Positions 8,196 to 57,853 of a DNA stretch of 64,000 bases are shown in pieces. The number at the start of each line of letters is the position of its first letter. The stretch's first letter is position 1. Source of the DNA: Octopus vulgaris. Its lineage: Eukaryota. The translations under genes and the position numbers were made by a program. The notes under the pieces were generated by a model, which searched no databases, was not told where the DNA came from, and was given only the letters and a program-made list of their open reading frames with translations. The DNA lies in assembly GCA_951406725.2 (NCBI GenBank), contig OX597840.1:39556001-39620000 (forward strand), in the 5' to 3' direction.

Positions 8196-9407
8196 GCAGA
8201 ACTTAAACACAGACAAAATACCGCTAAGTGTTTTGTCCAGGGTAGTGACCATTCTGCTGTTCAATTTGGATTTATTTTATCGAGTCCGTAAGGACGAAAG
8301 ACAAAACTGACCTCGGTGGAATTCGAACTCAGAACGTAAAGACGGAGAAAATACCGGTAAGCATTTCGCCCGTCATGCAAACGATTCTGCCAGCTTGTCG
8401 CATGTTTTTAAAAGATATAAGTAATCCTTTTTACTATAGTCCCAAGGCCTGAAACTTCGGGGGAGGTGGATGAGTCGATTACATCGACCCCAGTGATTTA
8501 CTGGTACTTATTTCATAATTGCAGGAAGGAAGAAAGGCAAAGTCGACCTCGGCAGAATTATACTCAGTACATAAGGCCGGACGAAATGCAGCTAAGCATT
8601 ACTTTCGGCGTGATAACGATTCTCCCAGCTCACCGTCTTCTATTCATAAACATAATTAATCCGTTCCACTAAAGGCACAAGGCTTGAAATTTTCAGGTAG
8701 GGAACTAGTCGATTACATCGATCCAAGTGTTTTACTGCTCCTTAACTTATCGACCTCGATAGGACGAAAGGCAAAATTGACCGCACAGCAGTAGAATTTG
8801 AACTACCTATTTCTTTACTACCCACAAGGGGCTAAACACAGAGAGGACAAACAAGGACAGACAAACAGATTAAGTCGATTATATCGACCCCAGTGCGTAA
8901 CTGGTACTTATTTAATCGATCCCGAAAGGATGAAAGGCAAAGTCGACCTCGGCGGAATTTGAACTCAGAACGTAGCGGCAGACAAAATACCTATTTCTTT
9001 ACTACCCACAAGGGGCTAAACACAGAGAGACAAACAAGGACAGACAAATGGATTAAGTCGATTATATCGACCCCAGTGCGTAACTGGTACTTATCTAATC
9101 GACCCCGAAAGGATGAAAGGCAAAGTCGACCTCGGCGGAATTTGAACTCAGAACGTAGCGGCAGACAAAATACCTATTTCTTTACTACCCACAAAGGGCT
9201 AAACACAGAGAGGACAAACAAGGACAGACAAATGGATTAAGTCGATTATATCGACCCCAGTGCGTAACTGGTACTTATCTAATCGACCCGAAAAGATGGA
9301 AGGCAAAGTCGACTTCGGTACAATTTGAACTCAGAACGTAACGCCAGACGAAATACCGCCAAGCATTTCGTCCGGCGTACTAACCATTCTGCTAGATCGC
9401 CGCCTTA
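8196..9407 (-). mobile_element. SINE-A cluster: several old copies plus a young trimer
   Basis: Young starts 8808, 8992, 9175; head ends 9407; tcataaacataatta (8644-8658) and tcataaatataatta (9411-9425) flank the last old copy plus trimer. Confidence 0.9.
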
Positions 9408-21515: not shown

Positions 21516-22242
21516 ATATTCTCTTCTACTCTGGGCACAAGGCCCGGAATTTTGTTTTTGGAGAGGGAGCCAGTCGATCAGATCGGCCCCAGTATGCAAC
21601 TGGTAATTAATTCATAGGCCCCGAAAGGATGAAATGTTAAGTCAGCCTCGACGGAATTTGAACTCAGAACGTAAAGACAGGCGGAATACTGCTATGCATT
21701 TCGCCCAGCGTACTAACATTTCTTATTTCTTTACTACCCACAAGGGGCTAAACATAGAGGGGACAAACAAGGACAGACAGAGGAACTAAGTCGATTACAT
21801 CAACCTCAGTGCGTAACTGGTACTTAGTTTATCGACCCTGAAAGTATGAAAGGCAAAGTCAACTTCGGCGGAATTTGAACTCAGAACGTAACGGCAGACG
21901 AATTACCCATTTCTTTACTACCCACAAGGGGCTAAACACAGAGGGGACAAACAAGGACAGACAGAGGGACTAAATCGATTACATCAACCCCAGTGCGTTA
22001 CTGCTACTTAGTTTATCGACCCTGAAAGTATGAAAGGCAAAGTCGACCTCGGCGGAATTTGAAATCAGAACGTTAAAACAGACGAAATACCTATTTCTTT
22101 ACTACTCACAAGGGGCTAAACACAGAGGGGACAAACAAGGACAAACAAACGGATTAAGTCGATTACATCGACCCCAGTGCGTAACTGGTACTGAAGCCAG
22201 AACCATGTCTCTGGTAAGTAAGCTACTTACCACACGGCCACT
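21516..22242 (-). mobile_element. SINE-A array (old unit plus 2.5 young units) joined to a SINE-C head
   Basis: Starts 21724, 21908, 22092; after ...aactggtact comes gaagccagaaccatg...gctacttaccacacggccact (SINE-C head). Confidence 0.85.
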
Positions 22243-24974: not shown

Positions 24975-25598
24975 GTTTGGAACACAGCCACCAAGTTTGT
25001 GAGTGGGGAGGTAAATCGATCAAATTGACCCCTGAGTTCAACTGGTACTTATTTTATCGGCCCAGAAATGATGAAAGGCAAAGACAACCTCGGCAGAATT
25101 TGAAATCGGGACGTAAAGACGAACGAAATGTCGCTAATCATTGTGTCTCGCGTGCTAGCGATTCTGCCGGCTCACCGCCTTATTTCTTTACTGCCCACAA
25201 GGGACTACACACAGAGGGGACAAACAAGGAGAGACAAATGGATTAAGTCGATTACATCGACCCCAGTGCGTAACTGGTACTTATTTAATCGACCCCGAAA
25301 GGATGTAAGACAAAGTCGACCTCGGAGGAATTTGAACTCAGAACGTAGCGGTTGACGAAATACCTATTTCTTTATTACCTACAAGGGGCTAAACATAGAG
25401 GGGACAAACAAGGACAGACATAGGTATTAAGTCGATTACATCGACCCCAGTGCGGAACTGGTACTTATTTAATCGACCCCGAAAGGATGTAAGACAAAGT
25501 CGACCTCGGCGGAATTTGAACTCAGAACGTTATGGTTGACGAAATCCCGCTAGACATTTCGCCCGGCGTGCTAACCTTTCTGCCAGCTCGCCGCCTTA
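24975..25598 (-). mobile_element. SINE-A: old unit plus young dimer inside a 19-bp TSD
   Basis: Starts 25181, 25365; taccattatgcaaatattg (24948-24966) vs taccattatggaaatattg (25597-25615). Confidence 0.9.
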
Positions 25599-25674: not shown

Positions 25675-25882
25675 TTGTGTGATTTCTGTCCTTGTTTGTC
25701 CCCTCTGTGCTTAGCCCCTTGTGGGTAGTAAAGAAATATGTATTTCGTCTGCCGTTACGTTCTGAGTTCAAATTCCGCCCAGGTCGACTTTGGCTTCTCA
25801 TCATTTCGAGGTCGATAACTCAAGCACTAGTTGCGTACTGGGGTCGATCTAATTCCTGACCTTGTGCCTAGAGTAGAAAAAA
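25675..25882 (+). mobile_element. SINE-A young tail fragment joined at the standard junction to an old-tail unit
   Basis: gtagtaaagaaata|tgtatttcgtctgcc...ccttgtgcctagagtagaa. Confidence 0.85.
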
Positions 25883-26610: not shown

Positions 26611-26662
26611 TAAAAGTTTTGTCTGATATACTAACGATTTTTACCAGTTCACTGTCCTTATA

Positions 26663-27655
26663 TTTCCTTCAAAGTTAGACCCAAGACCCAAACACTTGGG
26701 GAATGGGCCTAGCCAATTACATCGACCCTAGTGATAAACTTCTCCTTATTTTATTGACCCGTAGAAGATATTGTCAATTTCGGCGGAATTCGAACTCAGG
26801 AAGTAAAATTACGAAATTAATGCCGCTAAACATGATATCCAGCGTGGTACCGTTTCTTATTTCTTTATTGCTCACAAGGGGCTAAACATAGAGGGAACAA
26901 ACAAGGACAGATAAAGGGATTACGTCGATTACATCGACCCCCCCGTGCGTAACTGATACTTATTTAATCGACCCCCCCGAAAGGATGAAAGGCAAAATCG
27001 ACCTCGGCGGAATTTGAACTCAGAACGTAACGGCAGACGAAATACCTATTTCTATACTACCCACAAGGGGTTAAACATAGAGGGGACAAACAAGGACAGA
27101 CAAACGGATTAAGTAGATTACATCGACCCCAGTGCGTAACTGGTACTTTATTTCTCAACCCCGAAAGGATGAAAGGCAAAGCCGACCTCGGCGGAATTTG
27201 AACACATAACGTAACGGCAGACGAAATACCTATTTCTTTACTACCTACAAGGGGTTAAACACAGAGAGGACAACCAAGAACAGATAAAGGGATTGAGTCG
27301 ATTATATCAACACCAGTTCGTAACTGCTACTTAATTTATCGAGGCCCCACCCTCCCGAAAGGATGAAAGGCAAAGTCTACCACGGTGGAATTTGAACTCA
27401 AAACGCAACAGCAGACGAAATACCTATTTCTTTACTACCACAAGGGGCTAAACACAGAGAAGACAACGAAGAACAGATAAAGGGATTGAGTCGATTATAT
27501 CGACCCCAGTACGTAACTGTTACTTAATTTGCCGACGCCACGAAATGATGAAAGGTAAAGTCGACCTCGGCGGAATTTGAACTCAGAACGTAACGGCAGA
27601 CGAAATACCGCTAAGCATTTCGACCGGCGTGGTACCGTTCCTGCCAGTTCGCCCA
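26663..27655 (-). mobile_element. SINE-A: old unit plus young tetramer
   Basis: Starts 26858, 27047, 27231, 27425; head at ~27605-27655. Confidence 0.9.
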
Positions 27656-30902: not shown

Positions 30903-31125
30903 TACCTATTTCCTTATTGCCCACAAGGGGCTAAACACAGAGAGCACAAACAAGGACAGACAAACGGATTAAGTCGATTACATCGACCCCAGTGCGTGAC
31001 TGGTACTTATTTAATCGACCCCGAAAGGATGAAAGGCAAAGTCGACCTCGGCGGAATTTGAAATCAGAACGTAGCGGCAGATGAAATACCTATTATCGAC
31101 CCCAGTGCGTAACTGGTACTTATTA
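30903..31125 (-). mobile_element. Headless young SINE-A unit plus partial unit
   Basis: tacctatttcc...ggcagatgaaatacctattatcgaccccagtgcg. Confidence 0.85.
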
Positions 31126-35370: not shown

Positions 35371-35941
35371 TGGATAATTTTTTTCAATATAAAATATAGT
35401 GTATATAATATATATTCTTGAATATCTTTGGACTCACACACTCACATACATACAATATCAGCATACAAAAGTATTTTTATTATTGTTCATAAATACAATT
35501 TATACATAACCCTAGAATATATGTACCTGTGTGTATTCTGCGGATGCGTTCTGCGTGCAATCAGCGTTGTGTATGTACGGGTGTTTAAGTGTTTTCTGTA
35601 CACTCCATATATGCTTGTGTGTGTGTGTGCGTGTGTGTGTAATAGTTCTTGCCCTGTGTTCCTGGCAATGATGAAAGTTAAACTCCGCTCCGCCGGGATT
35701 TACACTCATCGCGTAAATTAAAAGGAAATGAAGACAGCAAGACATTTAATCAGCCACTCACCAGTTCTTGGAACAGCTTCATATTATAAAGAAACATATA
35801 AAAGACAATTCCTTCGACATTTTTTAGGATATTGGCCATGTCCAATATTTTATTTCTTAGACGCGTCTAACAATTCAGTTTATTCTAATGGTTTTCATCT
35901 AAACGATTTTGAAATTGTATTTTATTGATCTGTAAATGGAA

Positions 35942-36765
35942 CGCGGCGATTTGTCAAGGTGTCGGACCATATGCTTAGCGGCGTTTCTTCCGACTCTTTA
36001 CGTTCTGGTTTCAATTCCACCTAGGTTGACTTTGCATTTAAATCGTTTTGGGGTCAATAAAATATATACCTATTTCTTTACTACCCACAAGGGGCTAAAT
36101 ACAGAAGGGACAAACAAGGACAGACAAACGGATTAAGTTGATTACATCGACCCCAGTGCGTAACTGGTACTTATTTAATAGAATGAAAGGGAAGAATGAA
36201 AGAATGAAAGAATGAAATGAAGAATGAAAGGGAAAGTCGACCTCGGCGGAATTTGAGCTCAGAACGTAGCAACAGACGAAATACTTATTTGTTTACTACC
36301 CACAAGGGGCTAAATGCAGAGAGGACAAACAAGGACAGACAAACGGATTAAGTCGATTACATAGATCCCAGTGCGTAACTGGTACGTATTTAAGTTGACA
36401 TCGGCGGAATTTGAACTCAGAACGTAGCGGCAGACCAAATGCCTATTTCTTTACTACTCACAATGGGCTAAACATAGAGAGGACAAACAAAGACAGACAA
36501 ATGGATTAAGTCGATTATATCGACCCCAGTGCGTAACTGGTACTTATTTAATCGACCCCGAAAGAATGAAAGACAAAGTCGACCTCGGTGGAATTTGAAC
36601 TCGGAATGTAGCGGAAGACGGAATACCGCTAAGAATTTTGCCCGGCGTGCTAGCGATTCTGCCAGCTCGCCGCCTTTGATAAAATATATACCAGTCAGCT
36701 ATTAAGGTCATCCGAATCGACTACTTCCTCGTACAAAATTTCGGGCATTGTGCCTATACCAGAAA
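35942..36765 (+). mobile_element. Old SINE-A interrupted by an antisense young trimer
   Basis: Old 5' part 35942-36070; old 3' part 36679-36765 (ccagtc...aaatttcgggcattgtgcctat). Confidence 0.8.
36071..36676 (-). mobile_element. Young SINE-A trimer with perfect 14-bp TSD
   Basis: Starts 36071, 36286, 36444; ataaaatatatacc at 36057-36070 and 36679-36692. Confidence 0.92.
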
Positions 36766-37156
36766 GTGTTGTTACGTAAATGTTCGCGCTCTAGTGACAC
36801 GTGGTAGGCGACGAGATCACTATATTGCCTCCGCCTGCATCAGACATTATTCGAGAAAGTTCAAGCTGAATGCTGTGATACTAAACCAAACGAACACACA
36901 CAAATACTCACACACAGGCACGCACATAATCACATGCACGCACACACACACACACACGTGTATATGCATATACAAAGCAAATGAGAGATATCTGTAAGAG
37001 AATTCTTTGTCATCGTCCATCTAATTCAGTGGTACCCAAAGTGGGCAGTACAAAGTGGGCTCCCTTGGGGAAAGATCCGATCCACAGGGGCGTTGAAAAA
37101 AAGTGGAATGATAACTGGGTGGCCAAAATGGGTTGATAGATTAAAAAAAATATTAT

Positions 37157-37330
37157 AGGCGTAGGAGTGGCTGTGTGGTAAGTAGCTAGCTTACCAACCC
37201 AATGGTACCGGGTACAGTCCCACTGCGTGGCACGTTGGGCAAGTGTCTTCTACTATAGCCTGAGGCCGTCACCGTAACTTACCAGTTCGGCAAAAAGAAC
37301 CGATAGAATAAGTACTAGGCTCCCAAAGAA
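37157..37330 (+). mobile_element. SINE-C (tRNA head, CORE-like domain), internally deleted
   Basis: ggcgtaggagtggctgtgtggtaag (A-box), gggtacagtccc (B-box), ttgggcaagtgtcttctactatagcc (CORE-like). Confidence 0.85.
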
Positions 37331-41292: not shown

Positions 41293-41310
41293 ATATATAT
41301 ATATATATAT

Positions 41311-45900: not shown

Positions 45901-45925
45901 CGGATATACATGTGTGTGTGTGTGC

Positions 45926-57500: not shown

Positions 57501-57853
57501 TATTTCTTTACTGCCCACAAGCGGCTAAACACAGAGGGGACAAACGGATTAAGTTGATTATATCGACCCTAGTGCGCAACTGGTACTTATATAATCGACC
57601 TCGAAAGGAAGAAAGGCAAAGTCGACCTCGGCGGAATTTGAACTCAGAACGTAACGGCAGATGAAATGCCTATTTCTTTACTACCCACAAGGGGCTAAAC
57701 ATAGAGGGGACAAACAAGGACAGAAAAATGGATTAAGTCGATTATATCTACCCCAGTGCGTAACTGGTACTTATTTAATCGAACTCGAAAGGATGAAAAG
57801 CAAAGTCGACCTCGGATGGAATTTGAACTCAGAACGTAGTGGCAGATGAAATA
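57501..57853 (-). mobile_element. Headless young SINE-A dimer ending at the unit junction
   Basis: Starts 57501 and 57671; ends ggcagatgaaata, then unique sequence. Confidence 0.9.

Follow-up and report, generated by a model that had tools for sequence, protein, structure and literature searches.

As listed in Table 1, it was found that a trimeric SINE on the minus strand is enclosed by two identical copies of ATAAAATATATACC in the 64-kb octopus window (the whole stretch of DNA analyzed here). This 14-bp duplication is exact and cannot be extended on either side, and the 14-mer occurs twice in the entire window, namely at both ends of the element. The chance probability of an exact 14-mer lying 3 nt or less from both element ends is about 3.5e-7. 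Between the two copies, there are one tRNA-like head and three head-less units. The first-pass annotation had claimed a perfect 14-bp target site duplication (TSD) around three units plus a head, and both parts of this description were borne out.

Table 1. Features of the trimeric SINE insertion and of the older SINE around it.
Feature	Position	Strand	Remarks
Old host SINE, 5′ part (head and central part)	35940..36056	+	from alignment
TSD copy, element 3′ end	36057..36070	.	minus-strand reading starts with GGTAT, which are the 5 initial bases of the next unit in the family
Unit 3, 215 nt, head-less	36071..36285	-	complete tail ending AAAGAAATA; microsatellite expansion
Microsatellite expansion in unit 3	about 36180-36234		length gain behind the 215 nt
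Unit 2, 158 nt, head-less	36286..36443	-	26-nt internal deletion
Unit 1, 184 nt, continuous with the head	36444..36627	-	B-box-like GTTCAAATTCC at 36590-36600
tRNA-like head	36628..36676	-	about 50 nt; A-box match at 36654-36664
1-2 extra bases between TSD and head	36677..36678	-	relative to the heads at 784, 9406, 25597, and 45670
TSD copy, element 5′ end	36679..36692	.	identical 14-mer
Old host SINE, 3′ part, tail-B end	36693..36764	+	from alignment and shuffles

The start of each of the three units corresponds to about base 50 of the SINE, and each carries the full tail AAAGAAATA; a typical unit is about 184 bp in length. The microsatellite-like expansion of unit 3 has grown out of the central CTTTCATTC motif of the SINE. 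It had been claimed that ATACC precedes every internal unit. This is true of the family majority, whereas the plus-strand sequence at the two focal internal junctions is ATACT and ATGCC, each one base off the family's ATACC. As for the internal Pol III promoter, the A-box pattern was matched in the head, while the strict B-box pattern had no match and a one-mismatch version is visible in unit 1. A tRNA-derived SINE is expected to be at least 60% identical to a tRNA; here ARAGORN returned 0 tRNA genes, and none of the Rfam matches at E<=5 was to a tRNA, the 9 weak matches all being below the gathering scores. The window contains 85 ORFs of at least 110 aa, many of which overlap simple repeats.

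What was the target of the insertion? When one TSD copy is removed and the flanks are rejoined, they align across the junction to an old SINE copy at 21521-21722 with 130 of 173 positions identical. Two types of 3′ tail are distinguished here by labels coined in this analysis, 'tail-A' (the trimer's type) and 'tail-B'. Compared with three tail-B copies, the right flank of the host beat all 300 shuffles in every case (scores 45, 41, and 30; shuffle maximum 29), while with three tail-A copies it stayed at the shuffle level in every case (p 0.12-0.16). Against five other old copies, p ranged from 0.013 to 0.88. Judging from these alignments, the host is a member of a sister subfamily, about 25% diverged and antisense to the trimer, which has the head and the central part in common with it and a different 3′ tail. 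The earlier claim of an antisense insertion into a copy of the same SINE thus holds in that the flanks rejoin as one old plus-strand SINE, but the identity of the host has to be corrected because of its tail-B end. Since the host is antisense, the head must have arrived with the insert, and the focal locus is cleaner than most in the window for the same reason.

Is this structure common? All family counts given here are from the one 64-kb window, in which 26 tail-A unit ends were found at 12 loci of 1-4 units each. Eight of the 12 loci are multimers of 2-4 units, and their 14 internal junctions are all in one register. Ten of the 12 loci lie on the minus strand, which might reflect the orientation within a host transcript. 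The family shows several properties of a tRNA-derived SINE, being short (<1 kb; the head plus one unit is about 235 nt), interspersed, and present in many copies, with the 14/14 TSD of a target-primed insertion at the focal locus. The head and the central part presumably resemble those of octopus SINEs. A different tRNA-like repeat occurs at about 37155-37260 (plus strand) and 22193-22220 (minus strand), which may resemble another octopus SINE family.

The outer 3′ ends of 11 loci were examined (25738 was left out); four start with GGTA, three with AGAAA, and four otherwise. The probability of four GGTA starts among 11 ends is about 1e-8 at an expected frequency of 0.0025 each. TSD-like matches were found at the focal locus (14/14), at 26858 (15/16), at 8808 (13/14), and at 41310 (within a TA repeat), while no TSD was found at five of the 11 outer-end loci examined. 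Two further candidates, at 25181 (11/12; conserved head) and at 45902 (16/16; a microsatellite, about 48 nt away), were not accepted.

The stretch duplicated at 8808 and at 26858 belongs to an older SINE on the same strand, and the array now uses the head of that SINE. The 8808 array (8707-9406, minus strand) was inserted at the B-box region of the older SINE, and three bases, GGT, which are absent from the target, lie between its tail and the TSD. Units 2 and 3 of this array differ by 2.2%, and there is a T4 run at the start of each. The 15/16 duplication at 26858 contains private letters and thereby shows that this array was inserted into the old head. The minus-strand arrays at 26660-27653, 20-784, and 21521-22192 all have AAGAAAT-AAGAAA at their ends, where it adjoins an older SINE's head at one and the same position, and the tail of these arrays may end in a 7-base repeat pairing with the old-head site. 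At 30907-31124 (minus strand), a short internal SINE fragment is fused directly to the last bases of a tail plus the start of the next unit, which gives the appearance that one unit has been mostly deleted. At 25685-25881 (plus strand), a 5′-truncated tail-A piece at 25738 is joined to a head-less tail-B body in the register of the multimer junctions, with no head upstream.

Units of the same array share 1.05 rare variants, and units of different arrays share 0.14 (21 and 279 pairs, respectively; p<1e-4). Thus, duplication is part of the history of the arrays, whether it took place at the source or in situ. Units of the same rank share 0.87 variants and units of different ranks 0.97, that is, there is no position-specific signature among the arrays and hence no single master trimer. 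Only 91 of the 247 non-CpG differences from the family majority are singletons, 2.4% per site, and this share fits many diverse source copies and a short time in place. The TATTT motif is kept in 18 of the 23 aligned unit starts present.

The orthologous site was compared in related genomes over 35645-36090, which comprises the left flank and 20 bases of the element. Four of the 24 runs were used, namely X11 and X13 (organism C, two studies), X18 (organism D), and X19 (organism E); organisms A and B were left out. In X11 and X13, a 420-nt contig spans 35645-36035 with 21 other letters and 3 gaps, and a second contig of 369 nt matches 36013-36070, from which it differs by 3 letters and 2 gaps. 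The match of the second contig ends exactly at 36070, which is the end of the TSD, and its next 308 letters do not align; its depth is that of a single-copy sequence (13.2 vs. 10.8 and 51.8 vs. 47.6). Since the match of a single-copy contig breaks off exactly at 36070, organism C probably has an empty site, as judged from the left junction in both runs. X18 and X19 have no contig over the unique flank 35645-35899 and are therefore uninformative for the site; a joint 35925-36066 in these two runs, carried by one contig with a 25-letter side, was disregarded. Over 36080-36090, the tail-A end, the depth was 82 and 340 in organism C, compared with 77,794 and 68,192 in organisms D and E, and the records overrunning the ends of the stretch numbered 3 and 2 compared with 441 and 350. 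By contig depth, which is no copy number, organism C has about a thousandfold less of the tail-A end than D and E do. These results suggest that tail A is nearly absent from organism C and that the expansion was recent and lineage-restricted.

Was the insert already a trimer on arrival? One outer TSD alone cannot tell. The units were compared over 157 columns, with 27 columns touched by the deletion and the microsatellite masked, and were found to differ pairwise at 21, 19, and 16 of the 157 columns (10-13%). The flank differs from that of organism C at 21 of 391 positions, or 5.4% (95% interval 3.4-8.1%). If the site is empty in organism C, copies made in place should differ by no more than approximately this flank difference. 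The three unit pairs exceed the 5.4% ceiling with p values of 0.0001, 0.0008, and 0.011, and the excess is weaker against a ceiling of 8.1% (0.016, 0.051, and 0.20). Per branch, non-CpG change amounts to 20/411 in the units and 9/564 in the flank (p 0.004; p 0.006 for all sites), but the excess is gone when the whole of the flank change is assigned to this lineage (p 0.77). A tree was built from 24 of the 25 aligned units, a short one being omitted; the focal units come out as a clade in none (0%) of its 200 bootstrap replicates, and yet forcing the three together gave a p-AU of 0.166, by which common descent is not rejected. One variant is common to all three focal units, and the non-majority letters shared are only two per pair. 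Two other lines of argument were dropped: the likeness of unit 1 to the 57501 array as proof of separate sources is a 5-letter match (p 0.41, not significant), and the perfect TSD is a weak clock, as a 14/14 match has a probability of 0.10-0.23 at 10-15% divergence.

On balance, the sequence comparison favors an insert that was already a diverged multimer on landing. As regards the claim of a single insertion of a ready multimer, the target-primed insertion itself is well supported by the exact TSD, the clean rejoining of the flanks, and the probably empty ortholog. Its ready-multimer part is favored by the divergence under equal rates, while the unequal-rate test and the p-AU value given above weaken it.

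The best reading, to which I give about an even chance, is one target-primed insertion of a read-through RNA from a multimeric source, primed by GGUAU. A source locus of the form head-(unit)n would be transcribed by Pol III from its single head, with the polymerase reading through the junctions. Since there is no T4 run within the focal element, Pol III could read all three of its units. Each junction starts with GG-TATTT, which may act as a leaky terminator by analogy with mammalian assays, and RNAs might end at any junction as ...AAAGAAAUA-GGUAU(U). In the assays described in the termination passages of PMC8466645, TATTT terminated 42% of the transcripts from B2 constructs and, in vitro, 50% of the tRNA transcripts. 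A putative LINE endonuclease would nick the plus strand after ...ATACC, and the resulting 3′ end would pair with GGUAU and prime the cDNA. Target-primed reverse transcription, with the RNA annealed to the primer strand at the nick, is presented as the standard LINE pathway in the pertinent part of PMC4760211. The copying of cDNA would then reach the head, and a second nick 14 nt away would give the TSD. The insertion would have taken place after the split from organism C, and the deletion in unit 2 and the microsatellite in unit 3 could have arisen either before or after it.

Priming through microhomology to the GGTAT of the next unit had been claimed from the focal locus, and it gains support from other loci, namely from the GGTA starts of the outer ends and from the non-target GGT at 8808, which is the best sign of a template running into the next unit. 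However, seven of the 11 outer ends start other than with GGTA. Moreover, the host family has GTACC at the target site, and four of the five matching bases were therefore available anyway; GGTA at the outer ends could instead be a preference of the endonuclease. As for the yield of the leaky stops, TATTT is also found within unit 1, where it would abort many transcripts, two TGTTT motifs per unit would lower the yield of transcripts, and two of the three GG-TATTT junction signals are broken in the focal trimer. The sharing of rare variants within arrays is also a point against the read-through RNA, as local duplication predicts it too.

Alternatively, there may have been one insertion in which the multimer was built during reverse transcription, by a pause at a hairpin at the unit start (...GAAATACC) and two jumps to the 3′ ends of other SINE RNAs. 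I consider this rather unlikely, although several observations agree with it. A hairpin whose 5′ arm is in the head and whose 3′ arm is the unit start is predicted for the head at 9330-9406 (z -2.94) and for two other heads (z -1.6 and -2.0), and a cDNA end at the unit start equals the end of the target primer. The copies at 57501 and 41310 are 5′-truncated at or near the unit start, the tail-A piece at 25738 is joined to a tail-B body in the same register, and the distances among the focal units (0.10-0.15) are similar to those between units of different arrays (mean 0.122). In contrast, the predicted fold of the focal head itself differs from this hairpin, and the sharing of rare variants within arrays would not result from jumps among random RNAs, unless one source dominates. 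This sharing agrees with a monomer that arrived with its TSD and was afterwards duplicated where it lay, through slippage or unequal exchange starting at the 5-bp GGTAT match. The near-identical pair of units at 8808 points in the same direction; since a T4 run should block Pol III and both of these units start with one, local duplication probably does occur in the family. For the focal trimer, such duplication is compatible with one outer TSD, with the few variants that the three units have in common, and with the p-AU value, which does not reject one clade. Unequal recombination has also been suggested for bivalve arrays in the array section of PMC11481361, and orthologous SINE-derived arrays of snakes vary in unit number according to the comparative part of PMC10702118. 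Nevertheless, duplication in place is an unlikely origin of the focal trimer, because its units diverge about twice as much as the flank does from the organism with the empty site, and because the fixed register of the 14 junctions over 8 loci is hard to obtain from chance target matches.

Serial insertion, in which later copies would enter the GGTATTTC site of the first copy on the same strand and their 5′ ends would be resolved by homology, is improbable. The family does enter same-strand SINEs with TSDs duplicating part of the host, as at 8808 and 26858, and the junction at 25738 would fit too. However, about 14 identical bases are then predicted at neighboring unit starts, where in fact 4/15 and 5/15 bases differ while the outer TSD is identical throughout; these differences have p values of 0.007 and 0.0009 at 5.4% divergence and of 0.056 and 0.013 at 10%. 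It is hardly credible that the 14-mer is a chance repeat or the trimer an assembly error, and this explanation is already largely refuted. The 14-mer is AT-rich, but the chance probability is as given above, the flanks rejoin in register, the match of the ortholog ends at 36070, and a collapsed or duplicated read would not leave units that differ so much. In summary, a single insertion of a multimeric template or cDNA, whether a read-through RNA or a product of template jumps, is likely. The feature is real, and the mechanism offered by the first-pass annotation is plausible and partly supported.

How does the locus compare with known systems? TSD-(SINE)n-TSD arrays have been described in the blood clam Scapharca broughtonii, where, as in the focal locus, one outer TSD encloses a first unit with the full tRNA head and later units head-truncated at one position (array section of PMC11481361). 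In the blood clam, the internal units also lack the 3′ tail, at which the first unit is truncated as well, and arrays involve 3% of SINEs with high scores according to the same section. In contrast, every unit of the focal family has a complete tail, multimers are found at two-thirds of its loci in the window (8/12), and the junction matches the priming end. Frequent head-to-tail multimers are also reported for B2, Dip, and Ves, amounting to 40-49% of B2 and Dip copies in the multimer passages of PMC8466645. These are mammalian, poly(A)-tailed SINEs with full-length units, whereas the units here are head-less and there is no poly(A) tail.

Alu, Urop, and Tu types II and III are complex dimeric or trimeric SINE families, as treated in passages of PMC13023118 with definitions in PMC3531059. 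They resemble the focal element in that, with a single 5′ promoter, the whole multimer is mobilized as one unit, but they have a fixed number of distinguishable monomers, while the number of units here varies from 1 to 4 per locus with no position-specific signature. SINE-derived satellites of squamates, for which amplification at the DNA level has been inferred, reach up to 1000 units and are homogenized (satellite passages of PMC10702118). The focal element likewise repeats part of a SINE in tandem, and its terminal unit is longer and extends to the SINE end. Unlike those satellites, the arrays of the focal family are short (at most 4 units), dispersed, and TSD-flanked; the focal locus is not homogenized, and the other arrays in the window show partial within-array sharing.

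The octopus tRNA-derived SINEs OR1 and OR2, originally described in 1994 (cited in PMC4824008 and PMC4758252), are CORE-SINEs. The central part of the present SINE shows a short, weak likeness to bivalve CORE rows, as compared by eye only. A first guess that it belongs to the MetaSINEs was dropped, as no likeness to the BivaMeta and BivaMD rows was seen by eye. A recent octopus repeat annotation describes a SINE expansion in passages that make no mention of such arrays (PMC13282606). Among the titles and abstract openings of the open-access papers retrieved, none describing multimers of an octopus SINE was found.

Thus, TSD-flanked SINE arrays and multimeric SINEs have already been described, and the present case is a variant with complete tails and priming-matched junctions. 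A function of the single focal locus is not evident. It is possible, though I put it forward tentatively and with some doubt, that this is a young, lineage-restricted family whose normal mobile form is one promoter head plus n head-less units in a chain of variable length. Each junction would provide both a leaky Pol III stop (TATTT) and a priming sequence (GGUAU), resulting in a ladder of transcripts, any rung of which could be inserted whole. The rungs might in addition be directed to the matching site of SINE copies already present, and the multimers would spread and grow by retrotransposition and not by DNA recombination. How SINE multimers originate, whether by later insertion, DNA duplication, or retrotransposition of multimeric templates, is stated by the authors to be not known for B2 in the passages concerned with insertion into tails and dimeric templates (PMC8466645), while bivalve multimers are attributed to unequal recombination in the array section of PMC11481361. 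The octopus family is dense and, in the window, mostly multimeric; it seems to be young, and in a close relative the focal site is probably empty. The question of multimer origin is therefore testable at scale here, for which existing genomes and small-RNA data could serve.
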